A stretch of 60,801 bases of DNA from a virus (taxonomy: Duplodnaviria; Caudoviricetes). This document shows positions 3,644-54,796 of this stretch, one piece after another; the stretch's first letter is position 1, and each line of letters starts with the position of its first letter. The notes below the pieces were generated by a model. That model saw only the letters and a program-made list of their open reading frames with translations. It searched no databases and had not been told where the DNA came from. Position numbers and translations under genes: made by a program. The DNA lies in IMG/VR virus record IMGVR_UViG_3300009537_000009, positions 1 to 60,801 of that record; one strand, given 5' to 3'.

Positions 3644-4055
3644 TCCCACCGAAAAGTATGGATGGGTCTCATGGACAAGAGTGGCACATCAGTTATCTCG
3701 GGCGAGCAGGGAAGTTAGCTTATTTGGTAGGGCGAAATACGCCGGTGATGCAAACGCAAGAGCGAGATTCGAACAGTGGTTGGTGTCTGTGTACCAAGAG
3801 GAGGGGTTGTGTCGGGCGGTGATCGGGGAAATTATGGATCATGGGAAATGTCCCGTGTGCCATGGTGTGGCTTGGACAATAATAAAAGAGAAGAAGGTGG
3901 TGTGTCGTAGTTGTAAGGGTACGGGGCAGATGGTGTGGACCGAGAAAAAACTTAAGGGGGTGGCGGGTAAGTGGGACAAAGAGAAGTATATCAGGATTAG
4001 AACAAGGGTTTTGGATATTGAAACAGAATTATTCAGGGTGATGAGAAGAAGATAG
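3600..4055 (+). CDS. Zinc-finger protein, antitermination Q-like
   Basis: CPVCHG...CRSCKGTG DnaJ-type zinc finger; last gene of replication operon. Confidence 0.5.
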   Translation: MSVEDIRALSIQGIDPTEKYGWVSWTRVAHQLSRASREVSLFGRAKYAGDANARARFEQWLVSVYQEEGLCRAVIGEIMDHGKCPVCHGVAWTIIKEKKVVCRSCKGTGQMVWTEKKLKGVAGKWDKEKYIRIRTRVLDIETELFRVMRRR

Positions 4056-4080
4056 GGAACATCCCTGTTCCCTTTTTATT
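4054..4080 (+). terminator. Intrinsic terminator
   Basis: AGGGAACA-tccc-TGTTCCCT hairpin followed by T-tract, between convergent genes. Confidence 0.8.
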
Positions 4081-4496
4081 TACGGCAGGATGACTCTCAG
4101 CTTCCTCATCTTGGCGGAAGTGTGGAGAGTCTTTAGTGATTTGTTTCCATGGTCGGACATGATTTGAATATGCCAACCAACAAACTCCGCTCCATGGAGG
4201 GGTACCATTCTTCTATGAATGGAATATGTGAAGTGATGGGCCAGTTCGTGAGAGACGAGCCACGTATTTAGGGCCCAAGGAGGAAGGTGTATTTTGGAGT
4301 GGTAGAAATCGAAGAGTGCTGGCCCCCTCTCAGGGAACACTACGCCCTTGATATTCTTTATGCCATAAGTCGTACAAATTAAACGAGCATAGTCCACAAT
4401 CCCTTCCTTTCTCAGTTCCCTTGAGATTGGAGAGAGGAACTCATGTTCCCAATCATACACCCTTTTTCTCTGGAAATCTCTTGGAAACATAGGCAT
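4080..4496 (-). CDS. HExxH zinc metallopeptidase-like protein
   Basis: SHELAHH followed by HGAEF, SprT-like pattern. Confidence 0.7.
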   Translation of the reverse strand: MPMFPRDFQRKRVYDWEHEFLSPISRELRKEGIVDYARLICTTYGIKNIKGVVFPERGPALFDFYHSKIHLPPWALNTWLVSHELAHHFTYSIHRRMVPLHGAEFVGWHIQIMSDHGNKSLKTLHTSAKMRKLRVILP

Positions 4497-12489: not shown

Positions 12490-12509
12490 ACTGTAAACGT
12501 GTTTACAGT
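12490..12509. promoter_or_regulatory. 20-bp palindrome copy 5
   Basis: ACTGTAAAC-GT-GTTTACAGT. Confidence 0.85.
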
Positions 12510-12564
12510 GATAGCAACATGCTATCCCAATACCCGCCATCCAGGCGGGTATGGAGTTAGAATG

Positions 12565-13074
12565 TTAGACTGTTTCCAGCTTGGACTGGAGAAGTTTAAT
12601 CATTCCCTGGAGCTCCTTCTTGGTCCACTTCCCATCCCTGAGACGAGCGCACTCTTTTAAGTAGCTCGAAGGAGCCGGGCCTTTTGCCTGAGCTTCCTTT
12701 TTCTTTTTCGTTGCGGCATCCCTTGCCTTACGAATCTTGGTCAGGATATCCATGCACATAGCAGCATTGGCGACGCCTACCTTGAGGTAGACATCTGTTG
12801 CCTGAGTGACATAAACACGGGCAGTGGACCATTTGAAGCCACTGGATTCTGCCACCACGTCGATCATGGCGCTTTTATATTTAGTGTCGAGTGACCACTG
12901 TTTACCGCGTTGTCCTTTTTTCCATTTGGTGGTGCCGTCTTTATCACCAGCACCAATGGCAGAAGTTACTTCCGCGATAGCGCAGTATGTCAGCCCTTCT
13001 CCGTTGAACAGGTTAGTTCCAGCTTGTTGAAGGTGAAACACTACGTCATCACTTAGTAGGATTGATTTACTCAT
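12565..13074 (-). CDS. Basic hypothetical protein, possible helix-turn-helix DNA binder
   Basis: VVAESSGFKWSTARVYV resembles an HTH; Lys-rich. Confidence 0.7.
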   Translation of the reverse strand: MSKSILLSDDVVFHLQQAGTNLFNGEGLTYCAIAEVTSAIGAGDKDGTTKWKKGQRGKQWSLDTKYKSAMIDVVAESSGFKWSTARVYVTQATDVYLKVGVANAAMCMDILTKIRKARDAATKKKKEAQAKGPAPSSYLKECARLRDGKWTKKELQGMIKLLQSKLETV

Positions 13075-13135
13075 TGCTTTAACCTATCGGGTTGGTTGAT
13101 GGGACTGGAGGGCTTGAAAGACACCAGTGAATCAG

Positions 13136-13155
13136 ACTGTAAACCTGTTTACAGT
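13136..13155. promoter_or_regulatory. 20-bp palindrome copy 6
   Basis: ACTGTAAAC-CT-GTTTACAGT. Confidence 0.85.
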
Positions 13156-13415
13156 TCTTTTCCCCAGCGCCTAGCCTATCCAGCACCTATATTATACTGT
13201 GAGGGGGCTGATAGGGTTCCTGTTGATCTGAAACGACAATCCAGCTTTAGATGGAACGATCCACGGCCCCCTACACGGGTATATAAAACACCCTTCCCTC
13301 ACACACACACCATTTTTCTCTATAATTTTTTGGGAAAAATTTGTGATATTCTGGTTACGATTTGTTAATGAATGTATGATTGTACGTCCATGTGGGGAGT
13401 CCCTGACATTGACAA

Positions 13416-13424
13416 TGTTATAAT
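13416..13424 (+). promoter_or_regulatory. Extended -10 promoter upstream of terS
   Basis: TGTTATAAT. Confidence 0.55.
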
Positions 13425-13434
13425 ATACTTATGA

Positions 13435-13908
13435 ATGTATTTTATGGGGAAGGAAGTGGCTAGTAGACCAAATAAGTATAGGAGAGCCTGGAATCAGGCA
13501 ACCATCCCACTGGTAAGAGAGTTGATGGAGAATGGTGGTTCTATCGTGGAGGCATGTAGAATCATGGGAATTAGCAGGGTGACCCACTATCGGTGGATGA
13601 AATGCCCTACAAAAGCAGCATATAGCCGCGCTATGAGTGATCTTCTGGATGCTTCCGAGGCTTGGTGGATGAGGCAGGGGAGAGAGAATGTTGGAAACAG
13701 AAGTTTTAATACCCAGTTATTCAATCTCAATATGGTCAATAGGTTCAAGTGGAACTCTGCCCAATCAGAACAGACGCGGAACGTCTCCGAGAAGAGGAAG
13801 GTTACTGTCGATATTCGTAAAGCTATCGACGAGTCGGAGGAAAAAAATGAGGAGCAACACGGAGAGGTTATTCCTTTGTTGAAGAAAGTAGTTGACAATG
13901 GGGAATAG
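13435..13908 (+). CDS. Terminase small subunit (putative)
   Basis: HTH GGSIVEACRIMGISRVTHYRW, SEAWW..GR, MVNRFKW; first rightward late gene. Confidence 0.75.
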   Translation: MYFMGKEVASRPNKYRRAWNQATIPLVRELMENGGSIVEACRIMGISRVTHYRWMKCPTKAAYSRAMSDLLDASEAWWMRQGRENVGNRSFNTQLFNLNMVNRFKWNSAQSEQTRNVSEKRKVTVDIRKAIDESEEKNEEQHGEVIPLLKKVVDNGE

Positions 13909-13919
13909 TGTGGTATAAT
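13892..13919 (+). promoter_or_regulatory. Consensus sigma70 promoter of the RNA island
   Basis: TTGACA 13892-13897, 16-nt spacer, TGgTATAAT ending 13919. Confidence 0.9.
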
Positions 13920-13926
13920 GGTCCCA

Positions 13927-14047
13927 GGTTGCGTAGTTTAATGGCAAAACACTAAAAACACTATTTCTACCTATTGCTTTCCAAGCCGCTTGAGATGGTT
14001 TATCATTCGCTAAATGAGTGATGCGGGTTCGATTCCCGCCGCAACCG
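13927..14047 (+). ncRNA. tRNA-like RNA with ~70-nt expanded anticodon region; Y RNA (YrlA)-like candidate
   Basis: Acceptor GGTTGCG/CGCAACC, D arm, T arm GCGGG-TTCGATT-CCCGC, no CCA; inner helix ACTATTTC/GAGATGGT and bulged-C helix TGCTT/AAGC(C)G. Confidence 0.65.
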
Positions 14048-14056
14048 ACTTATTAC

Positions 14057-14131
14057 GGGGGATGGGCAGAGCACCCGGAGAATCCTTGCAAGATTCTAGC
14101 CTGATCAGTTTGAGTCTGATACCCTCCACCA
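14057..14131 (+). tRNA. tRNA-Ala(TGC)
   Basis: GAATC-CTTGCAA-GATTC, G3:U70, ACCA end. Confidence 0.85.
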
Positions 14132-14200
14132 GTTTAGCGTCCGAAGTGTGTAGGTTACCACCAAAGATATTGCTTGATACTCCTATGTACGATCACTTGA

Positions 14201-14276
14201 CGCTCTATCGTATAACGGCTATTATTCCGGACTCTTAATCCGTGTGATCCAGGTTCGAATCCTGGTGGGGCGACCA
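14201..14276 (+). tRNA. tRNA-Lys(CTT)
   Basis: CGGA-CTCTTAA-TCCG, TTCGAAT loop, CCA. Confidence 0.9.
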
Positions 14277-14290
14277 ATCATGGAGGAACT

Positions 14291-14572
14291 ATGCAGTACA
14301 GTTTTCTAATACTGCTTATAACATTTTTGATAATGTTAATCATTCTGATAGTGGATGATTGGCGGAAAACACTGCTTATAGAGGAATATAAGGTACTATC
14401 ACGAGTGTGGTCGCAAGAATCCTCACTGCTGGATGAGTACAGAAAGAAGTCGAGGGTATGGTTACATGGCGACTATCCTATTCTCAAGGATAGCGAGGTC
14501 ACCAAGGAAAGGCGAAGGGTTCTGCACAAGATGGCAGAAGATCGCAGGAAAGGAACTCATAATAGAGCGTAG
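14291..14572 (+). CDS. Membrane-anchored hypothetical protein
   Basis: GGAGG RBS, N-terminal hydrophobic helix; stop codon inside tRNA-Cys. Confidence 0.7.
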   Translation: MQYSFLILLITFLIMLIILIVDDWRKTLLIEEYKVLSRVWSQESSLLDEYRKKSRVWLHGDYPILKDSEVTKERRRVLHKMAEDRRKGTHNRA

Positions 14573-14637
14573 AGGTCGATTGGATAAACGGGTGTCTGCA
14601 AAACACTCACAAGCTGGTTCGATTCCAGTCTACGCTT
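14566..14637 (+). tRNA. tRNA-Cys(GCA)
   Basis: GGTGT-CTGCAAA-ACACT, U73; followed by CCG running into next tRNA. Confidence 0.85.
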
Positions 14638-14639
14638 CC

Positions 14640-14713
14640 GGTCTGTTAGTTTAGTGGTAAAACATTGGTCTGTCTAACCTTTGTCAAGGGTTCGATTCCC
14701 TTACAGATCGCCA
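14640..14713 (+). tRNA. tRNA-Asp(GTC)
   Basis: GGT-CTGTCTA-ACC, G73, CCA. Confidence 0.85.
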
Positions 14714-14719
14714 AATTAC

Positions 14720-14807
14720 GGGGGTGCTGGTATGCGCCTTATCAATTCTTGCTCTATTGAGCCGAAGATACAGGCTTATCTTGGTTCGACTCCAAGTACC
14801 CCCTCCT
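14720..14807 (+). tRNA. Atypical tRNA-like gene, undetermined anticodon (9-nt loop, long variable arm)
   Basis: Acceptor GGGGGTG/TACCCCC, T arm CTTGG-TTCGACT-CCAAG, TCAAT-TCTTGCTCT-ATTGA. Confidence 0.6.
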
Positions 14808-14811
14808 ATAT

Positions 14812-14901
14812 GGATTGTGCAAGTAAGTCAGCCTGGGGCTGAGAACGGCTGTAACCCGTTTCCTTATGGGCATGAGGTTCGATTCCTTCCACGATCCACC
14901 A
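14812..14901 (+). tRNA. tRNA-Tyr(GTA), atypical 8-bp acceptor
   Basis: AACGG-CTGTAAC-CCGTT; GGATTGTG/CACGATCC; A73, CCA. Confidence 0.8.
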
Positions 14902-14973
14902 CCCCTTGTGTTGGGGAAACAACCACCACTCCTAATGGGGGTATTACAGGTTCGAATCCTGTCGAGGGGTCCA
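14902..14973 (+). tRNA. tRNA-Arg(CCT)
   Basis: CCA-CTCCTAA-TGG; CCCCTTG/CGAGGGG; CCA. Confidence 0.8.
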
Positions 14974-14975
14974 AT

Positions 14976-15158
14976 ATGGAAAACAATTCAGGGTACGTCA
15001 AGGTTCTTGAAGAGAGGGCGGCAGAAGCCTCCATGTTCAAGAAAGAGTTGGAGTTTTTGAGATTTTTCTATGAAAGGTCGGATTTCAAGATGGCGATCAT
15101 GGAAGAGTATACCGCTCTAGGACACAAGGTTCCCTATGAATATGATGAGCCTAGCTGA
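14976..15158 (+). CDS. Small hypothetical protein (60 aa)
   Basis: ATG 14976; SD-like GAGGGG lies in tRNA-Arg 3' end; stop inside tRNA-Ile. Confidence 0.6.
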   Translation: MENNSGYVKVLEERAAEASMFKKELEFLRFFYERSDFKMAIMEEYTALGHKVPYEYDEPS

Positions 15159-15222
15159 CTGATAGTCAGAGTGCGCCTGATAAGCGTACTGAAGCAAGGT
15201 TTGATTCCTTGAGGCTCAACCA
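15146..15222 (+). tRNA. tRNA-Ile(GAT)
   Basis: TGCGC-CTGATAA-GCGTA; TGAGCCT/AGGCTCA; ACCA. Confidence 0.85.
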
Positions 15223-15223
15223 A

Positions 15224-15300
15224 GCCGTGGTGGTGGAATTGGGATACACGCCAGTCTTAGAAACTGGTTCTTGAGAGTTCGAGTCTCTCCTGCGGTACCA
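15224..15300 (+). tRNA. tRNA-Leu(TAG), short variable arm
   Basis: CCAGT-CTTAGAA-ACTGG; 5-nt variable region; ACCA. Confidence 0.9.
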
Positions 15301-15305
15301 AATTA

Positions 15306-15383
15306 GTGTCCCTGACGGGAATTGGAATACCTGCCGGGCTTAAAACCCGGTGTTTCTCAGTTCGAATCTGAGTGCGAGTACCA
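15306..15383 (+). tRNA. tRNA-Leu(TAA), short variable arm, poorly paired acceptor (possible pseudogene)
   Basis: CCGGG-CTTAAAA-CCCGG and intact T arm; GTGTCCC vs TGCGAGT pair poorly. Confidence 0.65.
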
Positions 15384-15397
15384 TTCATTGGTGATTT

Positions 15398-15781
15398 GTG
15401 AGACATACAAAGAAGGATTTTGAGATAGACTGGTTTTCGGGTAGTGGTGCTGGCGGACAACATAGAAACAAACACCAGAACTGTTGCCGGATTACTCACA
15501 AGCAAACCGGGTTGAGGGCGCAGTCCACGAGTCACAGGGAAAGGTGGAAGAACCAGCGCGACGCATTCAACCGTTTAGCTGGGATGATAATTGCATCTGA
15601 TGATAAAAAGGAAAGAAGGGATTCCAATCATATTGTCAGAACATACAACTATGTTCGGGGCATTGCCACTGACGGGGTTATCGAAAAACCCTTGCATCCC
15701 GTAATAAACGGTGATATAATGGAGTTTATTGTTAACTCCTTATCTGGCAATAGACCAGATAGATTCACGGGCAGAATGTAA
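15398..15781 (+). CDS. Truncated class I peptide chain release factor-like protein (GGQ peptidyl-tRNA hydrolase domain)
   Basis: SGSGAGGQHRNK...CRITHKQTG...VRTYNY...NGDIMEFI, matching the C-terminal half of RF1/RF2. Confidence 0.9.
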   Translation: MRHTKKDFEIDWFSGSGAGGQHRNKHQNCCRITHKQTGLRAQSTSHRERWKNQRDAFNRLAGMIIASDDKKERRDSNHIVRTYNYVRGIATDGVIEKPLHPVINGDIMEFIVNSLSGNRPDRFTGRM

Positions 15782-15785
15782 CAAT

Positions 15786-15861
15786 GTATGCATAGCTTAA
15801 CCGGCAAAGCCCAAGGATGTGACCCTTGAAGATTCAGGTTCGAAGCCTGATGTATACCCCA
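15786..15861 (+). tRNA. tRNA-His(GTG), no encoded G-1
   Basis: CAAGG-ATGTGAC-CCTTG; C73; base -1 is T. Confidence 0.85.
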
Positions 15862-15862
15862 A

Positions 15863-15938
15863 GCAGTCTAGGCCGATCCGGCGATGGTTCTAGTCTTCCA
15901 AACTAGTGAGGTGGGTTCGACTCCCACAGGCTGCTCCA
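15863..15938 (+). tRNA. tRNA-Gly(TCC)
   Basis: CTAGT-CTTCCAA-ACTAG; U73, CCA. Confidence 0.9.
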
Positions 15939-15942
15939 ATTT

Positions 15943-16013
15943 CCCCCTGCTAATGGATAGAGGCAGGTCTTCTAAACCGGTCCTTGTGGGTTCGAATCCC
16001 TCCTGGGGGTCCA
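15943..16013 (+). tRNA. tRNA-Arg(TCT)
   Basis: GGT-CTTCTAA-ACC; compact D arm; CCA. Confidence 0.75.
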
Positions 16014-16028
16014 TATACAGAGAAAAGA

Positions 16029-16718
16029 ATGGGATTACTAATACCGCCATCTGATGATCCAATGGATACTCAGTGGACTGACTACGAAGCATATATTCCG
16101 TGGTGGAAGGATACTCCTCCCATGGCGAGACATGGCCTCATTACAGGGGAAACACCCAAACATATAGGGCTTGGTTTCAGGAAAACCAACGATCCGAGTG
16201 AACCCTATGTTGAGAGGCTTTTGAATATTCGTGGATTAAATACAGACGGAACCTCGCCCCGTTTTATTGCGGAGGATAATGAGAGTCTGGCAAAGTTCGG
16301 AGCAACAACCCGAATCGAACCCGATAACGCATATGTGATAGGGTCTGCGTATAAAGAAGGTGAGACATATATGCACGAAGCGGCTCATTTTTTTTCGGGG
16401 GACGACAAGGTGGTCGAGAGATTGGAAGATATCGGGATGACCACTACCAAGGCCAAGTCGGGGGAAACGCTGTACAAATGGCCCGGAAAGGATGTATTCA
16501 TACCCGAAGCAGATACAGAACATATGTTGATTGATCTGGAAACTTTTCTCAGAAATGACAATACCCAAAACGCTATGCAAGCTTTTGAAAGGCTTATTGA
16601 ACTTTCCGGTAAACACGACATCAAACTATCGAAAGTGGTGGATGTGTACCACGACATAGTGGGCCTTCTATATGAGATATATCCGGACCTAAAAGAATTG
16701 TCGATGGATGGCCGGTAG
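16029..16718 (+). CDS. Hypothetical protein with HExxH motif
   Basis: MHEAAHF; probable start 16029; stop inside tRNA-Ile(TAT). Confidence 0.7.
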   Translation: MGLLIPPSDDPMDTQWTDYEAYIPWWKDTPPMARHGLITGETPKHIGLGFRKTNDPSEPYVERLLNIRGLNTDGTSPRFIAEDNESLAKFGATTRIEPDNAYVIGSAYKEGETYMHEAAHFFSGDDKVVERLEDIGMTTTKAKSGETLYKWPGKDVFIPEADTEHMLIDLETFLRNDNTQNAMQAFERLIELSGKHDIKLSKVVDVYHDIVGLLYEIYPDLKELSMDGR

Positions 16719-16775
16719 TCATAAGGCAGCTTATATCTGTCTTGGAGCAGGGTTCAACTCCCTGATCGACGACCA
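16699..16775 (+). tRNA. tRNA-Ile(TAT)
   Basis: GGCAG-CTTATAT-CTGTC; TGTCGAT/ATCGACG; ACCA. Confidence 0.85.
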
Positions 16776-16790
16776 TATGTGGAGAGGACG

Positions 16791-16949
16791 ATGAAAGAAC
16801 TGATACAAGAGAGTGAGGAGGGGTTGAGATTCGTACCCCTCGAAGATTTGCTTGAGGCCCTTCATATGCTTAGAGATGACTTCATGCAAATGAAACGCGG
16901 GTACCATGTTACCATAGAGAAATGGATCAAGGAGCTTGATGATGTCTGA
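16791..16949 (+). CDS. Small hypothetical protein (52 aa)
   Basis: GGAGAGG RBS, MKELIQESEEG... Confidence 0.55.
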   Translation: MKELIQESEEGLRFVPLEDLLEALHMLRDDFMQMKRGYHVTIEKWIKELDDV

Positions 16950-17154
16950 GAGGCCACCTGTACTTTGTGGTATCGATGGGGTGTATCATCCCGCTTTTTA
17001 CCGATGTAATCAATTTCGGTTTCGGGGATACGGGATTACGATGATATGTTGCGCCGTATGCAAGGAAGGCTCCCATATCGAGGATGATACAGAAAACTCA
17101 GCTCGTAGGCCGGATATCGAGGCGGCATTCTTACAAAATGCCAGTAGAGGGTGA
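16942..17154 (+). CDS. Small Cys-rich protein
   Basis: AGGAG RBS; CCAVC; 3' end overlaps tRNA-Val. Confidence 0.5.
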   Translation: MSERPPVLCGIDGVYHPAFYRCNQFRFRGYGITMICCAVCKEGSHIEDDTENSARRPDIEAAFLQNASRG

Positions 17155-17174
17155 GATTCCTTCACGAGCTACCA
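17100..17174 (+). tRNA. tRNA-Val(TAC)
   Basis: GCATT-CTTACAA-AATGC; AGCTCGT/ACGAGCT; atypical T loop TGAGATT. Confidence 0.85.
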
Positions 17175-17180
17175 AATAAT

Positions 17181-17259
17181 GGGGATGAGATGGCTCGACC
17201 GATCTTAAAACCTTACGGAAAGGATCGGGACCAGGGATCAAAACCCTGCATCTCCACCA
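17181..17259 (+). ncRNA. Minimal tmRNA-like RNA: tRNA-like domain only, no mRNA-like domain
   Basis: GGGGATG/CATCTCC with G3:U70 and A73-CCA; stemless D loop AGATGGCTCGA; 8-bp P2-like CCGATCTT/AGGATCGG; GAC then CAGGG-ATCAAAA-CCCTG. Confidence 0.8.
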
Positions 17260-17264
17260 TATTT

Positions 17265-17336
17265 TCCCTGTCTGCGGACTCAGTGTGACGGCTACGAACC
17301 GAAATCAGGTCAGTTCAACTCTGGCACAGGGAACCA
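17265..17336 (+). tRNA. tRNA-Arg(ACG)
   Basis: CGG-CTACGAA-CCG; TCCCTGT/ACAGGGA; ACCA. Confidence 0.8.
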
Positions 17337-17337
17337 A

Positions 17338-17411
17338 AGGCCGATAGTTCAACGGCAGAACACTGGGCTTTGAACCCGGTAGTCCTGGTTCGAATCCAGG
17401 TTGGCCTTCCA
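17338..17411 (+). tRNA. tRNA-Gln(TTG)
   Basis: CTGGG-CTTTGAA-CCCGG; canonical arms. Confidence 0.92.
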
Positions 17412-17417
17412 TACATA

Positions 17418-17504
17418 GCTGGCTTGGCAGAGCGGACGAATGCAGGGGTTTTGTAAGCCTCAGTCGAAAGACCATCGTGGGTTCGAATCCTACAGTTAGC
17501 TCCA
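17418..17504 (+). tRNA. tRNA-Thr(TGT) with long variable arm
   Basis: GGGGT-TTTGTAA-GCCTC; GTC-GAAA-GAC arm; G1-C72, C2-G71. Confidence 0.8.
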
Positions 17505-17518
17505 ACCTGAGAGAGAAG

Positions 17519-18166
17519 ATGAGAAAGGGAATATTACTTGTAGTGTTTTTGCTGGGTGGTTGCGGTGTGATGACCGATCAGGGCAGGGTGTCCAAAGAGG
17601 TTTATCGGGCCGAAACGGCACAAAAGCTGTTCGACTCCGCCCAAAAAGCTGATGATGCTTTCGCAAAGGAAAACCCCGTGAGCGGAGTACCGTCATACTG
17701 TAACGGTTCTGTAACAGATGCCCAAGCCGTGGTTTGCGGGATGGCTCAAGCGAACGCTAATCTCTCAGTAGCCCTTGTAAACGCAAACAGGAAAGCCTCT
17801 GTCGCTTATGCTTCACAGATTCTATCTACACAGGCACAAGAAAGAATTGCATTCAAGGACCGTCTGATGAATTTCTTCGGTATCGTGTATTCGACCGAGA
17901 GGGGCTCAAGGAGCCGTTCTACGGGTGATGGGACCAGGGTGGTCATCAATGGGCCAAACGCCCGAGGTAGCGGAGAAGGAGGGGCTTCTGCTGGCAGTCA
18001 GGACGTAAGCCTGAATATCGGTAATGCAAATCAGGTATCTTCGGATGGAAGGACTGGTTTTGCCAACAGGAATAGTACGGTTGACAACCACGACCAATCC
18101 GAGGTTGTGTTCGAACCTGTCCTCGAACCGGTGGTTGACATACCCGAACTACCTGTGATAGAATAA
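17519..18166 (+). CDS. Lipoprotein
   Basis: MRKGILLVVFLLGGC lipobox; probable start 17519. Confidence 0.75.
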   Translation: MRKGILLVVFLLGGCGVMTDQGRVSKEVYRAETAQKLFDSAQKADDAFAKENPVSGVPSYCNGSVTDAQAVVCGMAQANANLSVALVNANRKASVAYASQILSTQAQERIAFKDRLMNFFGIVYSTERGSRSRSTGDGTRVVINGPNARGSGEGGASAGSQDVSLNIGNANQVSSDGRTGFANRNSTVDNHDQSEVVFEPVLEPVVDIPELPVIE

Positions 18167-18173
18167 AGAGTTT

Positions 18174-18248
18174 GGACTTCTGGTGTAGGTGGCCGCACGA
18201 CAGTTTGAAGCACTGTAGGATCAGGCTCGATTCCTGGGGGGTCCACCA
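18174..18248 (+). tRNA. tRNA-Phe(GAA)
   Basis: ACAGT-TTGAAGC-ACTGT; ACCA. Confidence 0.85.
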
Positions 18249-18250
18249 AA

Positions 18251-18325
18251 GCACCGTAAGGCGAATGGCGAGCCAGTAGTCCTTCAAACTATTGTGAGTG
18301 GGTTCGATCCCCACACGGTGTACCA
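18251..18325 (+). tRNA. tRNA-Glu(TTC), C at position 33
   Basis: GTAGT-CCTTCAA-ACTAT; GCACCGT/ACGGTGT; ACCA. Confidence 0.75.
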
Positions 18326-18326
18326 C

Positions 18327-18404
18327 TGTGGGATAGCAATCCGGGTGATCGCAGACGGCTGTTAACCGTCAAGGAGATGAGTTCGAGTCTCATTCCCACA
18401 GCCA
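18327..18404 (+). tRNA. tRNA-Asn(GTT)
   Basis: GACGG-CTGTTAA-CCGTC; G73, CCA. Confidence 0.9.
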
Positions 18405-18409
18405 TTTCA

Positions 18410-18494
18410 GGAAGGTAGGGTGCTGGGCACAAAAACGGTTTGAACCCGTTCCCACTCTTTGGGGTGATCGTTCGATTCGGATTACCTTCCGCCA
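18410..18494 (+). tRNA. tRNA-Ser(TGA), 8/4-type fold
   Basis: AACGG-TTTGAAC-CCGTT; GGAAGGTA/TACCTTCC; long variable arm; G73. Confidence 0.85.
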
Positions 18495-18495
18495 C

Positions 18496-18581
18496 AGTAG
18501 GTTGAGTGCTGGGCACACGACAGTTTGCTAAACTGCCCCACTCCGAAGGGGGTGACAGTTCGATTCTGTAACCTACTGCCA
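18496..18581 (+). tRNA. tRNA-Ser(GCT), 8/4 fold
   Basis: AGTAGGTT/AACCTACT 8 bp, T stem ACAG/CTGT 4 bp; loop TTGCTAA; G73. Confidence 0.85.
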
Positions 18582-18584
18582 TAT

Positions 18585-18659
18585 CAGAGACGACGAGGCT
18601 GGGTCATCTCCGTCCCTTGGAAGGACTGAAGCGCAGTTCGATTCTGCGGTCTCTGACCA
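18585..18659 (+). tRNA. tRNA-Pro(TGG)
   Basis: GTCC-CTTGGAA-GGAC; C1-G72, A73. Confidence 0.85.
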
Positions 18660-18660
18660 G

Positions 18661-18735
18661 AGGGGTGAAACATTTAAGGTGATGTCTCGGTCTTTTAAAC
18701 CGGAAAACAGGGTTCAAGTCCCTGCGCCCCCACCA
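18661..18735 (+). tRNA. tRNA-Lys(TTT)
   Basis: TCGGT-CTTTTAA-ACCGG; ACCA. Confidence 0.85.
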
Positions 18736-18739
18736 GTCA

Positions 18740-18748
18740 TGGTATAAT
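18740..18748 (+). promoter_or_regulatory. Extended -10 promoter
   Basis: TGGTATAAT immediately upstream of the large structured region. Confidence 0.65.
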
Positions 18749-18752
18749 AGAG

Positions 18753-19139
18753 ATAGGCACTCCCTGCCTTAAAATTATGAGCGGCTCACCGTCCGTGTCG
18801 GGAAGAAAAGCGGTTTTAATGAGCGGGTCTTTGACCTCGGACCAGTCCTCCAGAGCGCAAGCAAGTTAGGCGGGGGGCGATAAACAGGGCTATACTGTAA
18901 CACAGTCAGTGACTACGACCAGCTTCGGCTGCTTGGCCTTACGGCCTTGAAGGTAGTGCAGCGTCTCGCGGTACGATAACACGCACCTGATATACGCTCA
19001 CCTTGTGACGGTAACTAGACAACCATAAAGAGTATTCTCTCCCTGTGGTGGAATTCTCGGATCATATGCTGGACTAATATCCCGGCCTATAAACCCCGAC
19101 CAGTCTGGTTACAGTGAAGGAGGTCCGAGCTATGCCTAT
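18753..19139 (+). ncRNA. Large structured non-coding RNA, unclassified (~385 nt)
   Basis: No long ORF; nested long-range helices 18753-59/19133-39, 18836-43/19122-29, 18894-901/19108-15; cUUCGg hairpin 18920-18931. Confidence 0.7.
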
Positions 19140-19170
19140 TTGTGTTGTATTTTTACAACAGGGGGAGTTG

Positions 19171-19353
19171 ATGCAGTGTAAGTGCGGTGGAAGCACGGTT
19201 GACCGTGTGTCTGTCCGAAAGAAGGGGAAGTACAAACTTCTCTATGTCCATTGTGTCGAGTGTACCAGGGTAGGTAATTGGTTGTACCTTGAAGATAACA
19301 AGTTGGCTGCCTCCGGTGAGGATGCCAGAAAGAAATATAGCGCGGTGGTGTAA
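19171..19353 (+). CDS. Small zinc-ribbon protein
   Basis: GGGAG RBS; MQCKCGG...CVEC; stop inside tRNA-Met. Confidence 0.65.
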   Translation: MQCKCGGSTVDRVSVRKKGKYKLLYVHCVECTRVGNWLYLEDNKLAASGEDARKKYSAVV

Positions 19354-19413
19354 AGGCTAACATCTTGGACTCATATTCCTCGGCTGAGAGTTCGATTCTC
19401 TCCTGCGCTACCA
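19339..19413 (+). tRNA. tRNA-Met(CAT) (elongator Met or Ile2 not resolved)
   Basis: GGA-CTCATAT-TCC; AGCGCGG/CTGCGCT; ACCA. Confidence 0.8.
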
Positions 19414-19414
19414 T

Positions 19415-19491
19415 GAGCCGTCATGTTCCAAGGCTGGCGATGAAGTCTCCAAAACTCTATGTGTGGGGTTCGATTCCCTAGCGGCTCGCCA
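19415..19491 (+). tRNA. tRNA-Trp(CCA)
   Basis: AGT-CTCCAAA-ACT; G73, CCA. Confidence 0.8.
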
Positions 19492-19509
19492 ATTACTAAA
19501 GGGAATTAC

Positions 19510-20181
19510 ATGAATGTAATCTTATGTTCCGGAGTGATGCGTTCCGGATCGACGTGGTGTTTTAACGTATTAAGAGGTTTGTGTGGTCTGGTCGCTGAGT
19601 GTCTCTCTAAACCGTTCTACGCCTCTTACCTGGAGGGGGATGCTTTAGACAAGTTCCTCCTTTCCGATGCCGCTTTAAGGCCTGGGGTGAGTGTATTCAA
19701 GACGCACCTCATAGGGCCGCGAGCTGCCCACTTAGCCAGAAGCGGCATCATCAAGAATATTTGTACGTTGCGAGACCCCAGGGACTGCGTAGCCTCTCGT
19801 CAGGAGTTTAAGTCGGAAAGCCTGTCCGACTCCATCGGGCTTGTTAGGGCATCATATACTACCGCGATGGGACTCGATGATGCTGCGCTGTTCCTGGACT
19901 TTGAGAATATTAAAACATCCCCGGTATCTGTCATTCTCGATATGATGGAGTATTTGGGGATAGATTTCGAGAGTGCTGATGAGGTGGCTGGCATTCTCTC
20001 GGAAGAGTTTTCCTTGGAAAAAATGAAGAAGATGGAACCGAATAATGGAATTGATCCGCTAACGGAAATTCACGAGAACCATTTTCACGGGGGAGAAAGC
20101 GGGAAGGGCGTATCTCTTGGTCTGGATAAGAAGCTGGAAGACCTTCTTGACTTTTATCGAAAGGTGACAAATGACTCCTAA
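19510..20181 (+). CDS. Sulfotransferase-domain protein
   Basis: GVMRSGSTW (5'-PAPS loop), KTH, RDPRD..AS (3'-PB); probable start 19510. Confidence 0.8.
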   Translation: MNVILCSGVMRSGSTWCFNVLRGLCGLVAECLSKPFYASYLEGDALDKFLLSDAALRPGVSVFKTHLIGPRAAHLARSGIIKNICTLRDPRDCVASRQEFKSESLSDSIGLVRASYTTAMGLDDAALFLDFENIKTSPVSVILDMMEYLGIDFESADEVAGILSEEFSLEKMKKMEPNNGIDPLTEIHENHFHGGESGKGVSLGLDKKLEDLLDFYRKVTNDS

Positions 20182-21844
20182 GTGGGGGGTTCGTATCGAG
20201 CCTGTTGTTCGGGATCGGTCACCCAATGCGGATGCTGCTGAAACCTTTTGGGAATGGGTTAGGGATAAGGATTATCGAAGGGCTGTTATGGCTTACGAGG
20301 AAATCCACAAAGACCCAAACATGGATAATTCATTTATTCGCACATTGGGGCAGTTGGATAGATTTTACCTCGCTGCATTTTTGTGCAACAGGGTCGATCT
20401 TCTCCACCCATGGCTATACGATAGAGCAAGGGAAGTTCAATACGATTGTGATGAGCACTTGGATTTGTGGGCAAGATTCCATTATAAAAGCACTCTTGTG
20501 ACACAGTTCGGCGGGATACAGGAAATTCTAAAAAACCCGAACGTCACGATTGCAATTTTATCCTATTCCACTAAGCAAGCCAAGCCCTTTCTAAGGGCTA
20601 TTATGCAGGTGTTGGAAACCACAAGAAGTTTACATGAGTTGTATCCTGATATCTTGTGGGACAAACCAAAAGTACAAGCCCCAAAATGGAGCGAGAATGA
20701 GGGGATCAGGGTAAAGAGAACCAGAAATTCTCCAGAAGAAACCATACAGGCGTTTGGTTTAACGGACGGGCAGCCAACCGGGTATCACTTTCAGTTGCAG
20801 ATATATGATGATGTTGTTGTGCGCTCCTCTGTGACCACCCCCGATCAGATTAAGAACACGACAGAGCAGTGGGAGTTGTCACTCAACCTTGGCGATACGC
20901 ATAACCCTAGAAGACAGTATGTTGGCACGAGGTATGCGTATGGGGATACTTATGGGACTATCATGCAACGGGCTGCTGTAATTCCTAGAATCTATCCAGC
21001 TACCCATAACGGAAAGATAGATGGTTATCCTGTCTTTCTTTCTAAGGATAGATTTGATGAGATTGTAAAAACAACTTCGCAGTACACGGTTGCTTGTCAA
21101 CAACTCCTGAACCCACTTGAGGGAACGGATATTTCTTTCAAGCAGGAGTACTGGCGAGAATACGAAATACGCCCATTCACTCTGAATGTTTATATTACGG
21201 TAGACCCCGCAAACTCCAAAAAGAAGGGTTCCAACCGCACCGCAATTTCCGTGGTCGGGGTTGATCAGGCATTTAATAAATATCTTCTTGACGGCATGTG
21301 TCACAAGATGACCCTCTCAGAACGATGGTCTAATTTAAAGAAGGTCAGAGAGAGGTGGATTCGTATGCCTGGAGTAAGGGAAGTCAGGGTGGGGTATGAG
21401 AGATATGGAGCACAATCCGATATCGAGCACTATAAAGAGATGATGAAAATCGAGGGCGTATCGTTTCCTATTTACGAAGTGGCGTGGGTAGGGGGGGAGA
21501 ATCAGGGACAGTCAAAGGTGGACAGGGTGCAAAGACTGGAGCCTGATTTCAGGAATGGTTCTTTCTTTTGGCCATACCAAACCGACGCCAAGAATCTTAC
21601 CAAGCTTCAGAGAACCATGTCCATGTCCGGTCAAGCTTTTCTCGTGGCAAAAAAGATCATCAATATAGACGAGGATGGCAAGACGTATAACCTTGTTAAT
21701 TGGGTGAAATCCAACGAGTATGACTTGTTCCCATCCATCCATCCAGATTTTCTCGATGCCATGTCAAGAATTTACGACATGGATATGAGGCCACCAAAGA
21801 ATTATGTAGGCCCAATGGAGCCCTCAAAAGAGGAGAGTTATTAA
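20171..21844 (+). CDS. Terminase large subunit
   Basis: ARFHYKST Walker A-like, TGYHFQLQIYDD Walker B, GTRY, nuclease VDPA and HPDFLDA. Confidence 0.9.
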   Translation: MTPKWGVRIEPVVRDRSPNADAAETFWEWVRDKDYRRAVMAYEEIHKDPNMDNSFIRTLGQLDRFYLAAFLCNRVDLLHPWLYDRAREVQYDCDEHLDLWARFHYKSTLVTQFGGIQEILKNPNVTIAILSYSTKQAKPFLRAIMQVLETTRSLHELYPDILWDKPKVQAPKWSENEGIRVKRTRNSPEETIQAFGLTDGQPTGYHFQLQIYDDVVVRSSVTTPDQIKNTTEQWELSLNLGDTHNPRRQYVGTRYAYGDTYGTIMQRAAVIPRIYPATHNGKIDGYPVFLSKDRFDEIVKTTSQYTVACQQLLNPLEGTDISFKQEYWREYEIRPFTLNVYITVDPANSKKKGSNRTAISVVGVDQAFNKYLLDGMCHKMTLSERWSNLKKVRERWIRMPGVREVRVGYERYGAQSDIEHYKEMMKIEGVSFPIYEVAWVGGENQGQSKVDRVQRLEPDFRNGSFFWPYQTDAKNLTKLQRTMSMSGQAFLVAKKIINIDEDGKTYNLVNWVKSNEYDLFPSIHPDFLDAMSRIYDMDMRPPKNYVGPMEPSKEESY

Positions 21845-40333: not shown

Positions 40334-41697
40334 TGGGATTAGATAGAAATGTTCTTGCCCAAGGTCTGTTGAATATGGGCACTACACTCGGGCAGTCCGT
40401 GATCGCAAACTCTGCTCTTGAGAAAGAGATTGCGATGAAGGAAAGACTGGGTATTTTGGACGCACAGACAAGGCTGGAGCAAGAGAGACTGGTAACTTCT
40501 CGTTCCGAGAATGTTGCAAATATACAGGGTGGATGGAACTTGAAGTCTCAACAAGAGGCTAGTGCTGGAAGCTTGGCTTCAACCAAGGCTGCTGCTGCTG
40601 GAACCCTTGCTGTTCAACAGGAGATGGGTCGTACAGAGATTGAGTTGAAGGGTATGGACAACTCTGGCCTGATGGAAAGATTAAAGCAGTCCGGGCTCAA
40701 CGCGGTTAGGTTGCAGGAAGTTATCAATGGCGGAGACGTTAATCAGATCAGAGAAAACGCAAAGGCCGGTATTGATAGTATGCGTGAAGAGGTAAACCTT
40801 GCTGACAAGCGAGCGAGGCAGGAACATAAAAGGAATCTGGAGTTTACGGCAAATACCGCTGTAGCGAGTGCTGCTGCTGCCATGGATAAGACTCTTACAG
40901 ATACAGCGACCCAACTTACATCAACGATTGAAGAGATGTTGAAGGCTATTGCTGATGCCCGTAGAGGCTTGGACGAAGTAGTGGAGACCCGTGTTGTAGA
41001 CGGCAAGGAAGTAAATGTCACTTATGGTATGTTCTTATCGGAGATGATTGAAGAACGAAGGCAAGTGATGGGTCTTATGATGGGTACGGCAAGATCATCT
41101 TATGAGACCGGACTTGAGGAGTCGTTCGAGAAGAAGGAGTCTGGAGCGGAGATGACTCCAACAGAGAATAAACAGGCTAAAGCTTACGAGCCTATCTTTT
41201 TCAAGAGGCAGTCTGTAGATGCCCAACAGTGGGTTAAGGAGGGAGGAGAGCTTTCCTCCAAGAGGTTGGCCAACTGGAAGAGGGCTGGCTTGAATCCAGA
41301 GGCTATCTTCTCCGCAAGGGATAAGGTCGTCAAGAGTCAGGCTCCGGAGGAAATTGTCAATAAACCACCGGTTAATGATAAACCAAGAAACAAACCACCA
41401 ACTGTTGCTCTGCCTGATCCTGTAAAAACAGAACTGCCCGATATGGCTGGTCTTCTTTACCCAAAAGAAAAGCCAAGGCAGCCCATGCAACCATATAGTA
41501 ACGACTCCAGGGTAGGAGGCTTGCTATCACAGGATAGTGGAGCGCAACAAAGAGAAATAAAGGGAGCGATTTCAAGAATACAGGCTCTTGGTACTGGTCC
41601 GTTGGATGGGGCAAAGGAAAAACAAAGGGAGATTTTGATGGCATTTTTGAGAAACAAGGGCATGACTGACGATCAAATTGCACACATGGTGAAATAA
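40333..41697 (+). CDS. Putative internal virion protein
   Basis: Coiled-coil-rich; precedes giant gene. Confidence 0.6.
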   Translation: MGLDRNVLAQGLLNMGTTLGQSVIANSALEKEIAMKERLGILDAQTRLEQERLVTSRSENVANIQGGWNLKSQQEASAGSLASTKAAAAGTLAVQQEMGRTEIELKGMDNSGLMERLKQSGLNAVRLQEVINGGDVNQIRENAKAGIDSMREEVNLADKRARQEHKRNLEFTANTAVASAAAAMDKTLTDTATQLTSTIEEMLKAIADARRGLDEVVETRVVDGKEVNVTYGMFLSEMIEERRQVMGLMMGTARSSYETGLEESFEKKESGAEMTPTENKQAKAYEPIFFKRQSVDAQQWVKEGGELSSKRLANWKRAGLNPEAIFSARDKVVKSQAPEEIVNKPPVNDKPRNKPPTVALPDPVKTELPDMAGLLYPKEKPRQPMQPYSNDSRVGGLLSQDSGAQQREIKGAISRIQALGTGPLDGAKEKQREILMAFLRNKGMTDDQIAHMVK

Positions 41698-53254: not shown

Positions 53255-54796
53255 TTAACCCTTTATAAAATCAGATATCACGGCAGGGACTCCCGCATCA
53301 AACCCGACTACATCCATTGCGCCGCCATCCTCCGGATCAGCAATCGTGAATCCCGTAGAGGTCATACCAACCACCACCAACTTGGCGTGGATTCCCATGG
53401 CCGAACGGTATCTTCGTAGCGCCTCCATCGGCTTCATTTTCCCCGCCCATGTTTCATTGTCAGTGTAGACAATGAAGGCATCGTAAGACTTCTTCTCTAG
53501 AAGAGCAACTTGCATCGGAAGAGAACAGTCGGTTGCACCGAACGGTAGTCCATGCACCGCCTTCATAGCTGCATTCAGATTCCACCCACGAGCAATAGGC
53601 AGCTTTGTGATGCTATTACAGAACCCATACACATCCGCACAGTCCTCTACATTCACCGTAACCAGGCTCATGGCGGTAGCAGCCATTCTGACAGACATGG
53701 AACCATTGAACGGAAGCCCCATTGACCCCGATACATCGAGACCAATCATGATACGCTTCCCTGTTGGTTCAACATTCACAAATGCATCATGAAAGGCGTT
53801 ATTGAGCGCGCCCACAATAAGAGCAGAGGAGTTACCCTCCTTCTTATACTCGCTCATTGCAATCAAGACAGACATCGGATGCACCATTGAACCACGGATG
53901 CCCCTCAGCTTCTGCACTACTAGCTCTTCGCACTCACGATTGAAGACACCGTAGTTGCTCATGTTGCGCAGATTACGGATCATTGCAGTCATCGGCATGT
54001 TGGGTAGCATGGCCCTCCACACACCCGCATCCTTCAACACCTCGGTTGACAAATACTCTCTTGGGGTGTGATGGTTTTGCACGAGAAAGTCCACCACCTT
54101 CTCGGGATTGGTCTCGTTGCGGATAGATTCGTATGTGTGAACAGCCTGTGGTGCCTGTGGAGTCACCTTGCCGCCAACCGCCCAACCAAACAACGCATTA
54201 TGTTTTTCGCTGACCGGCTTAACATGGGCGAGGCGCAGTACATCTCTATGCGTCCATCCCTCACGGTTCCGGTACTTGGTCATGCCGAAAGCAAGAGCAT
54301 GTATGTCACGCGAGTACCACTCCCCCACAACCTTACGAATAAGACTGCCCCACTTTCCACCCAACTGCTTGCGGTACTGTAGGAACATGAATAAGTGAGT
54401 AGGAATACGGCAGATATCACCCAGCCTGGAAAGAGCCAAACTCCTAACAGCTACCCTTTTATCCACTGAGGCAACAGCCAGCGCGAATATTTGTGGGTCT
54501 ACCTTGTGGGCCAGTCCGTTTACGTTGACATCCACTATAATGTCGATTGCTCTCTCTGCGTCTGACCTGAGAGCAGTCAAGATGGCCTCATAATTGCCAG
54601 CCACCATCTCCCGCTTCGAGACGTAGAATGTCGCCCCGTCCGCGCCGAGAATAAGAAACCTTCTCAGGCGATCAAATTCATTCAGCCCATAAACAAACCC
54701 ACCCGCGTTGTTCATGACTTCTCGTGGGTCGGAGCGCACCGTTTGTGGCGTCACCCGATGACGATCAATTGCGTAATTCTGCATTTTGCTACTCAT
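53255..54796 (-). CDS. rsr: Ro60 (TROVE + vWA) RNA-binding protein
   Basis: NNAGGF, RLRRFLILG, KYRNREGWTHRDVLRLAH, MP.TA.IRNL, MIDAS DVSGSM, YTDNETW, GFTIADP.D..MDVVGFD. Confidence 0.95.
   Translation of the reverse strand: MSSKMQNYAIDRHRVTPQTVRSDPREVMNNAGGFVYGLNEFDRLRRFLILGADGATFYVSKREMVAGNYEAILTALRSDAERAIDIIVDVNVNGLAHKVDPQIFALAVASVDKRVAVRSLALSRLGDICRIPTHLFMFLQYRKQLGGKWGSLIRKVVGEWYSRDIHALAFGMTKYRNREGWTHRDVLRLAHVKPVSEKHNALFGWAVGGKVTPQAPQAVHTYESIRNETNPEKVVDFLVQNHHTPREYLSTEVLKDAGVWRAMLPNMPMTAMIRNLRNMSNYGVFNRECEELVVQKLRGIRGSMVHPMSVLIAMSEYKKEGNSSALIVGALNNAFHDAFVNVEPTGKRIMIGLDVSGSMGLPFNGSMSVRMAATAMSLVTVNVEDCADVYGFCNSITKLPIARGWNLNAAMKAVHGLPFGATDCSLPMQVALLEKKSYDAFIVYTDNETWAGKMKPMEALRRYRSAMGIHAKLVVVGMTSTGFTIADPEDGGAMDVVGFDAGVPAVISDFIKG

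Follow-up and report, generated by a model that had tools for sequence, protein, structure and literature searches.

A stand-alone GGQ protein encoded within a phage tRNA array is a candidate codon-independent ribosome-rescue factor

Why would a phage carry a release factor that lacks the means to read a stop codon, and keep its gene among tRNA genes? The locus that raises this question is the mini release factor gene (mini-RF, Table 1) of a phage of the Caudoviricetes, IMG/VR record IMGVR_UViG_3300009537_000009. The record is complete at 60.8 kb, and the whole of it (60,801 nucleotides) is the window of this study. The first-pass annotation of this DNA had described an open reading frame (ORF) of 127 amino acids that starts just before the motif GAGGQHRNK and has a C-terminus like that of release factors 1 and 2 (RF1 and RF2), a description that Pfam, NCBIfam and profile alignment all confirm. 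We propose that the mini-RF product rescues stalled ribosomes as a peptidyl-tRNA hydrolase that binds the ribosome and needs no stop codon, a reading to which we give a probability of roughly 0.55.

The limits of the gene leave little choice. With an in-frame TGA two codons before it and no further start codon until Met63, the GTG is the sole start that retains the GGQ motif; homologues start at the same place in the alignment. The GGTGAT just upstream, which we take to be complementary to the 3' end of 16S rRNA, is plausibly the Shine-Dalgarno site. The encoded protein is small and basic (isoelectric point 10.2, net charge +9), with GAGGQHRNK at residues 17-25 and VRTYNY...TD...INGD..EFI at residues 80-111.

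Profile comparisons place its likeness to release factors well beyond chance. The Pfam model RF-1 (PF00472) matches residues 5-76 (E = 2.9e-16, 59.9 bits, cut-off 35), and the protein matches positions 213-337 of the 347 in the NCBIfam RF1 model NF001859. Scores against NF001859, TIGR00019 and TIGR00020 are 57.1, 50.4 and 50.1 bits, where the cut-offs are 400, 423 and 370. When a 107-member family profile was searched against the PDB, its positions 5-126 corresponded to residues 233-363 of the 365 of E. coli RF2 (E = 8e-21, 78 bits) and to residues 220-349 of RF1 (76 bits). What mini-RF holds is domain 3 plus the strands and helix of domain 4, without domain 1, domain 2 or the tail of ArfB. 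In common with RF1 and RF2 it has a GGQ domain followed by a long helix and, in domain 4, strands and a helix with the pattern R-x-Y...D...DG..D.FI. It differs from them in being phage-borne, in lacking the PxT/SPF codon reader, and in family-specific residues of its own (W12, R23, H26, N28-C29-C30 and F57). The first-pass annotation had also remarked on the missing PxT/SPF region and on the lack of a long basic tail of the ArfB type, and both remarks hold. Because the protein starts 18 residues before the GGQ, there is no room for the PxT/SPF domain, and PCRF (PF03462) has no match at E <= 10 in the whole phage record; an ArfB-type tail is absent too, as the last domain-4 helix is followed by just 12 residues. 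In the profile alignment, mini-RF is also about nine residues short in the linker by which RF2 joins the domain-3 helix to domain 4, a region that we take to be the switch loop. In release factors, this loop couples codon recognition to the docking of the GGQ domain.

The AlphaFold2 model of mini-RF (mean predicted local distance difference test score, pLDDT, of 87.3) agrees with this partition. Its best matches in Foldseek and VIA are ribosome-bound RF1 and RF2 (Z 9.4-8), on which residues 1-72 superpose with a root-mean-square deviation (rmsd) of about 3-3.5 A; the same residues superpose at about 2.3-4 A on the GGQ domains of RF1, RF2, PrfH, C12orf65 and YaeJ. The domain-4 remnant is modelled with a pLDDT of about 96 as strands 82-84, 89-91 and 96-98 and helices 99-103 and 108-115. 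Residues 1-118 align only loosely with residues 215-348 of RF1 and RF2 (about 9 A), so the two halves of the protein may be oriented differently, or flexibly, relative to those of the canonical factors.

Judged by its relatives, mini-RF is a member of a real family and not a fragment. A word-indexed search returned 586 proteins of 69-223 amino acids, nearly all of 125-140, the best with 62% identity to mini-RF. When 1.84 billion representatives were searched with a profile and without filters, proteins of at most 200 amino acids made up 143 of the best 150 matches, and release factors of canonical length first appear at 93 bits, versus 200 bits for the best mini form. The family can be recognised by the signature WFSGxGAGGQHRNKHQNCC or, more fully, as proteins of about 125-140 amino acids with DF..W[FY]SGxGxGGQHRNKHxNCCRIxH and an R-x-Y...D remnant of domain 4. 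Mini-RF has all 22 positions that are invariant in the 107-member alignment, among them G19, Q21, R23, N24 and K25 and, in the domain-4 remnant, R81, Y83 and D92; G20 is kept in at least 90% of these members. The N28-C29-C30 signature is invariant in a 30-member set as well as in the 107-member set. The family is phage-borne: IMG/VR holds 407 stretches confirmed by tblastn, and a set of prokaryote genomes (185,579 species, one genome each) holds 10, eight of them on contigs of metagenome-assembled genomes.

Parts of this family have been annotated before. PHROGs holds partial families (phrog_3122 and phrog_20323) that cover only residues 4-67 of mini-RF, and the accessible part of PMC5966550 mentions small "RF-1 domain" ORFs in tRNA arrays. 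No functional or structural study of the family was found in the literature searched, which did not extend to supplementary tables. The release-factor review of Burroughs and Aravind (2019, PMC6514570) contains neither "phage" nor "viral" and does not describe the family, and PMC10865867 does not mention release factors. Mini-RF appears to be a new member of an annotated but uncharacterised family, and its architecture would be a new variant among GGQ factors.

Could it nevertheless be one of the known codon-independent factors under another guise? The comparison with RF1, RF2, ArfB and PrfH that the first-pass annotation had suggested, made with hidden Markov models, structures and a tree, indicates that mini-RF is neither ArfB nor PrfH and clusters with neither. 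It scores 22.5 bits against the ArfB model NF006718 (cut-off 100) and 44.9 bits against the PrfH model TIGR03072 (cut-off 166.65), the latter only at model positions 104-178, which are the GGQ domain. The PDB profile search found C12orf65 (39 bits) and PrfH (37 bits) by their GGQ domains only, and no ArfB or ICT1 chain at E <= 0.001. ArfB (YaeJ) and ICT1 resemble mini-RF in being small stand-alone GGQ proteins without a codon reader, presumably with a role in rescuing stalled ribosomes, and the GGQ domain of E. coli YaeJ matches the mini-RF model over 70 residues (Z 7.2, rmsd 2.3 A). However, mini-RF lacks the linker and basic C-terminal helix, about 40 residues that follow the GGQ domain of ArfB; this helix probes the empty mRNA channel, according to the accessible parts of PMC7641280 and PMC7427801. 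PrfH, which acts without a stop codon (accessible part of PMC9304027), is also a truncated release factor paralogue without domain 1, and its GGQ domain matches over 71 residues (Z 9.2). Yet PrfH keeps an N-terminal module like domain 2, and its gene pairs with rtcB, whereas mini-RF has neither; a search of the complete phage record for RtcB (PF01139) gave nothing at E <= 1. The likeness to C12orf65 (mtRF-R) is again confined to the GGQ domain (Z 7.7-7.8).

A maximum-likelihood tree gives this separation a shape. It has 50 rows, namely 42 hand-picked family members or related proteins, two proteins of isolated phages, RF1, RF2, two PrfH, ArfB and one long form from a single bacterial genome, and is rooted at the midpoint only. 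All mini forms, mini-RF included, fall into one clade of 43 rows with support 96/96. The two PrfH form a clade of their own (96/94) outside it, RF1 and RF2 also lie outside, and ArfB sits on a very long branch whose placement is unsure. Longer proteins of 232, 180 and 164 amino acids nest within the mini-RF clade and carry the same W[FY]SGxGAGGQHRN..NCC signature. They keep part or all of domain 2 with a loop of the RF1 type, QR[VI]PPTE.KGR.HTS (PxT-type), and score best against RF1 models (185 bits for RF1 and 115 for RF2 in P0252; 165 and 95 in P0204). Because of this PPT loop, the family looks like an N-terminally truncated RF1, and its history looks like the capture of an RF1-like gene by phages followed by stepwise shortening from the N-terminus, with mini-RF at the short end.

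The clade also includes another architecture, in which the GGQ core is kept and the domain-4 remnant is exchanged for an unrelated short C-terminus, as in gp129 of mycobacteriophage EniyanLRS and gp53 of Tunturiibacter phage Tunturi_4. Sorted roughly by regular expressions, 112 distinct ORFs fall into mini forms that have the release factor C-terminus (64) or a different one (34) and extended forms (14); 22 unclassified loci are excluded from these counts. The RF-1 ORFs already annotated in phages and mycobacteria (phrog_3122, phrog_20323, gp129, gp53 and those of the G1 arrays of Morgado and Vicente 2018) share the GGQ core, nest in the mini-RF clade and are found in or near tRNA arrays; in the accessible sources they are annotated and not characterised. 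They differ from mini-RF by their length (113-115 amino acids), by their unrelated short C-terminus and, in some, by the lack of the CC pair. Family-like genes can also occur in tandem: a Pararhizobium sp. contig has three to four such GGQ genes within 4 kb (L087:3995-8172; also L179-L181), one of which encodes a form of about 190 amino acids with a decayed loop of the RF1 type (PPN for PPT). The same genome encodes RF1, RF2, ArfB and two PrfH-like proteins, one of whose genes has an internal TAG.

The position of mini-RF among tRNA genes had been taken by the first-pass annotation as support for a role in translation, and this association is borne out in other phages. The array around the gene has 21 tRNAs at 14201-19413 under default ARAGORN settings and 26 with a relaxed threshold, one of which overlaps the tRNA-His. 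Locus analyses covered the best 80 loci in each of two scans, out of 407 and 224 confirmed stretches (160 loci in all). Among the best 80 IMG/VR loci, which together have 333 tRNAs in 604 kb, 39 have a tRNA within 4 kb of the family gene and 23 have five or more. In the control, the loci of relatives of the phage's ribonucleotide reductase, the corresponding number is 0 of 28 (197 kb). After dereplication at 90% identity, a tRNA lies within 4 kb in 29 of 65 viral clusters and within 60 nucleotides of the gene in 13 of them; nine are flanked on both sides within 30 nucleotides, always on the same strand. The tRNA linkage recurs across diverged phages.

Within the array, the nearest neighbours of mini-RF are tRNAs or resemble them. 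Upstream, tRNA-Leu(tag) ends at 15300 and is followed by a tRNA-like element with a good T arm, an anticodon-like arm (loop CTTAAAA) and an ACCA end about 13 nucleotides 5' of the mini-RF start. This element has no convincing acceptor stem, is not called by ARAGORN even under relaxed settings, and folds no better than shuffled sequences (z -0.81). It is possibly a decayed tRNA or a processing signal. The promoter-like site directly before the array's first tRNA is the best of 17 such sites in 12500-20500, and is likely the start of the transcript that carries mini-RF. Two tRNA calls in the array are odd. One (13927-14047, plus strand) is 121 nucleotides long, was made by ARAGORN only with an intron, and would be a Leu(gag) with a 30-nucleotide insert; the other (14720-14806, plus strand) is an 87-nucleotide "tRNA-Asn(att)" with the anticodon at position 37, and is probably a mis-typed tRNA with a long arm.

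Protein-coding neighbours tell a different story, as none is conserved among 91 loci. Nothing recurs as a neighbour cluster except ORFs antisense to the gene itself and, in 12 loci, a phosphoesterase, and so no phage-encoded delivery partner emerges. The first-pass annotation had suggested that such a partner might bring the protein to the A site. This suggestion found no support, and a split release factor with a phage-encoded partner was rejected: beyond the lack of a conserved neighbour, the phage has no PCRF match and no ORF like domain 2, the best tblastn match with the domain-2 parts of the long relatives reaching only E = 0.019. The phage encodes no SmpB and no PTH2, ARAGORN finds no transfer-messenger RNA (tmRNA), and at the gathering score Rfam finds nothing in the record except tRNA.

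The nearest relatives of mini-RF suggest that the dose of such a protein is controlled. They are four IMG/VR contigs from four metagenomes, with three distinct sequences, whose product has 67% identity to mini-RF (L071, L074, L076 and L080, gene at 3983-4379 in each; the same genes are L094-L097:1501-1897). Their genes sit between tRNA-Thr(cgt) and tRNA-Ile(gat). Frame 0 stops after codon 53 at CTT TAG C, and the +1 frame continues with the consensus and spacing of the family. If CTTT is read as one step, the product is a normal family member of 132 residues that scores like others. Among the three sequences, the N-terminal part in frame 0 has 15-22 codon changes, all synonymous and none non-synonymous, and the C-terminal part in the +1 frame has 24-30 synonymous versus 3-12 non-synonymous changes. 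In the control (wrong) frames changes are mostly non-synonymous, and the heptamer is invariant. By these counts, both frames are under purifying selection. The shift site lies in what appears to be a tolerant loop, since in-frame relatives vary at these two codons. Mini-RF itself is not frameshifted; it has a single open frame, with TGG AAG at codons 50-51, and short fragments from the profile search (P0216, P0223, P0248 and others) have no such shift site. Nor did any of 107 distinct N-termini show a UGA mini-frame gate.

This arrangement resembles the programmed frameshift of prfB, the slippery motif of which is CTTT, a stop and then C (accessible part of PMC12421855): in the relatives too, a leucine codon, CTT, joins with the stop's first base to form CTTT, and a C follows the stop. 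The stop differs, being TAG, which is RF1-specific, instead of the TGA of prfB, and the site falls within the catalytic domain, at codon 54 instead of codon 26. The purine-rich AGAGAT, CGAGAC or AGAGAC placed 3 nucleotides upstream of CTT is a weak match to the AGGGGG of prfB, and this stretch also encodes a conserved R-D/E-R. If the site works as that of prfB, the amount of product in the relatives would depend on the time that an A-site stop codon takes to be resolved. The accessible part of PMC12421855 reports neither a frameshift in prfA nor a TAG in the prfB motif, and an RF1/UAG counterpart of the prfB frameshift is called unknown in that of Atkins et al. (2016, PMC5009743). The UAG-gated frameshift of these relatives appears to be unreported as far as the literature searched reaches.

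How might these pieces fit together? The protein would bind the A site as domains 3 and 4 of RF1 and RF2 do, hydrolyse the peptidyl-tRNA in the P site without reading a codon, free ribosomes with an unfilled A site, and thus return their tRNAs. The shortened linker would replace the switch loop, and the domain-4 piece corresponds to one that in RF1 and RF2 is part of the decoding-site superdomain. Phages would carry the gene and their own tRNAs as one translation-support module, here co-transcribed with the tRNA array. We infer codon-blind hydrolysis in the A site because conservation covers the catalytic loop and the parts that span from the peptidyl transferase centre towards the decoding site, there is no codon reader, and expression in the relatives seems gated by a stop codon. 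It is the most economical reading of a protein that joins the catalytic domain of a release factor to its C-terminus, has neither codon reader nor ArfB tail, recurs beside tRNAs and falls outside ArfB and PrfH. It also fits the logic of PrfH and what has been published on the tRNA arrays of phages and mycobacteria, where Pth2 and RF-1 domain genes are read as rescue factors (accessible parts of PMC5966550 and PMC7824862).

Several points weigh against the rescue reading. None of the known devices that deliver a GGQ domain to the ribosome is present in mini-RF (no domain 2 of RF1 and RF2, no ArfB tail, no N-terminal domain of PrfH), and isolated GGQ domains are not known to be active on ribosomes. 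A codon-blind release factor could also harm elongating ribosomes unless it were restrained. How the two halves of the model are oriented to each other is uncertain (predicted template modelling score, pTM, of 0.52). Since a same-clade architecture replaces the domain-4 remnant, domain 4 is not essential to the work of the GGQ core. Linkage to tRNAs is not obligatory either, as 41 of the 80 loci have none within 4 kb. Finally, a reference-based scan and tblastn over about 170 viral loci found the frameshift only in the same four contigs.

Some of these observations would sit more comfortably with other explanations. Mini-RF might act at stop codons after all, above all UAG, to boost or replace host RF1. 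It might do so with what is left of a recognition surface or in complex with a host factor, and the UAG frameshift would then be an autoregulation in some lineages, like UGA for RF2. The RF1-type PPT loop of the longer members of the clade, their best scores against RF1 models and the RF1-specific stop in the CTT TAG C of the nearest relatives all speak for such a role. We consider it unlikely, as mini-RF lacks the codon-reading residues N-terminal of the GGQ domain, the phage has no domain-2 ORF, and its stop usage is ordinary, with no suppressor tRNA and no recoding seen. The protein might instead work away from intact ribosomes, either on dropped-off peptidyl-tRNA, like Pth and Pth2, or on the split 50S subunit, like mtRF-R (C12orf65), in both cases recycling phage tRNAs. 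Pth2 genes hold the same place in tRNA arrays of mycobacteriophages and in jumbo phages (accessible parts of PMC5966550 and PMC7824862), the GGQ domain does match C12orf65, and the clade tolerates different C-termini. This is distinctly unlikely in our view, because the domain-4 remnant is strongly conserved, with R81, Y83 and D92 invariant, the match to RF1 and RF2 is twice as strong as that to C12orf65, and no partner, MTRES1-like or other, is conserved nearby. Furthermore, GGQ domains are not known to act on free peptidyl-tRNA.

An inhibitory or a lost function is harder to reconcile with the pattern of conservation. The first-pass annotation had considered a decoy for PrmC or ArfA, and a protein of this kind could soak up the host GGQ methyltransferase PrmC, or block the A site unproductively, in the course of host take-over. 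Mini-RF does carry the GGQ loop recognised by PrmC, which a decoy would likewise retain, and the protein is small and basic. Nothing specific favours a decoy, though. Conservation reaches the long helix and domain 4, far past the GGQ loop, and the invariant G19 and Q21 together with the domain-4 remnant fit an active ribosomal factor better. ArfA, for its part, binds domain 2 of RF2, which mini-RF lacks, and the prfB-like gate of the relatives is more suggestive of an active factor kept at a limited dose than of a sponge; we regard the decoy as very improbable. That mini-RF is the functionless, decaying remnant of a captured release factor gene is scarcely credible. The stepwise N-terminal loss through forms of 232, 180, 164 and about 130 amino acids could be read as decay, but the conservation data contradict it: hundreds of diverged members have the same length and share the 22 invariant positions, most changes between close relatives are synonymous, and the ORF of mini-RF is intact and has a ribosome-binding site.

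Ribosome rescue without a stop codon thus being the reading we prefer, we advance tentatively a more specific version of it, which we hold to be possible and not probable. Mini-RF would be a third kind of codon-independent release factor, which reaches the A site by its domain-4 remnant alone and tolerates an occupied mRNA channel, and the UAG gate of its relatives would serve as a feedback sensor. If this were true, the protein would release ribosomes on intact mRNA, for example at hungry codons once the host has cleaved or depleted tRNAs, or at slowly read stops. Ribosomes stalled on intact mRNA are handled poorly by ArfB and tmRNA. The expression of the relatives would then be the first counterpart of the prfB frameshift in the RF1 lineage, based on UAG, and in the infected cell their gene would sense vacant A sites or the activity of RF1.

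The rest of the phage gives a background for these hypotheses. It uses the standard genetic code and encodes a primase-helicase, terminase, portal, capsid and tail genes, and a ribonucleotide reductase. Megablast of the tRNA-array region against 50,697 phage records gave no match, and the large terminase has four weak protein matches only. The C-terminal ending R..R.TGR of mini-RF is common, in the alignment, to its closest subclade only. Stop-codon recoding was considered as a reason for the phage to carry a release factor and was rejected, as long ORFs are open under table 11, the 67 mechanical ORFs use stops in ordinary proportions (TAA 33, TGA 26, TAG 8), and there is no suppressor tRNA. 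Stop use does vary by strand block, with nearly always TAA in the structural genes of the plus strand and nearly always TGA in the minus-strand genes at 51-60 kb. Three other genes deserve mention. An orthologue of Ro60, an RNA quality-control protein, lies at 53255-54796 on the minus strand (TROVE domain, E = 7e-28; Ro60 vWA domain, E = 2e-59), and Rfam finds no Y-RNA family in the phage at the gathering score. A single ORF of 3162 codons follows the tail genes (41697-51185, plus strand) and presumably encodes a giant tail or virion-associated protein. Between the tRNA array and the large terminase, an ORF of 240 amino acids (19459-20181, plus strand) has a sulfotransferase domain (PF00685, E = 1.6e-11), an unusual neighbour for a terminase.

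Table 1. Coordinates of mini-RF, its sequence features and the surrounding tRNA array in the window.
Feature	Position	Strand	Basis or remark
Sigma-70 promoter-like site: TTGACA, 16 nucleotides, TATAAT, with TG	13892..13919	+	12/12 consensus
tRNA gene array, broken by few small ORFs including mini-RF	13927..19491	+	ARAGORN, Rfam
tRNA-like element	15317..15372 (element 15301-15388)	+	Rfam tRNA, 30.6 bits (gathering 29), partial, model positions 10-63
Shine-Dalgarno-like GGTGAT	15390..15395	+	2 nucleotides 5' of the mini-RF GTG; read from sequence
Mini release factor gene (mini-RF)	15398..15781	+	127 codons + TAA; GTG start; present in mechanical ORF list
GGQ codons (G19 G20 Q21), catalytic motif	15452..15460	+	Sequence and 107-member alignment
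N28-C29-C30, family-specific signature	15479..15487	+	RF2 has S-A-V in the alignment
Release factor domain 4 remnant, residues 80-115, with R81-x-Y83 and D92 motifs	15635..15742	+	Aligns with RF2 ~320-363
12-residue C-terminal tail, ends TGRM	15743..15778	+	Alignment columns 190-206
tRNA-His(gtg)	15786..15861	+	Starts 4 nucleotides after the mini-RF stop codon

Three codon-independent routes are known by which a GGQ domain comes to a stalled bacterial ribosome, namely the tail of ArfB, the recruitment of RF2 by ArfA or BrfA, and PrfH on damaged ribosomes. The family of mini-RF lacks the known recognition devices and is yet conserved in hundreds of phages, often in tRNA arrays, which suggests that phages, during infection, rescue ribosomes or control termination in a way not so far described. 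Its proteins are small, soluble-looking and readily testable in reconstituted translation, and the CTT TAG C gate of the relatives offers a direct experimental handle. This gate would also fill a gap in print, since the accessible parts of PMC5009743 and PMC12421855 know of no frameshift regulation in the RF1 lineage. More broadly, the mini-RF family may belong to the contest between phages and those host defences that target tRNAs.

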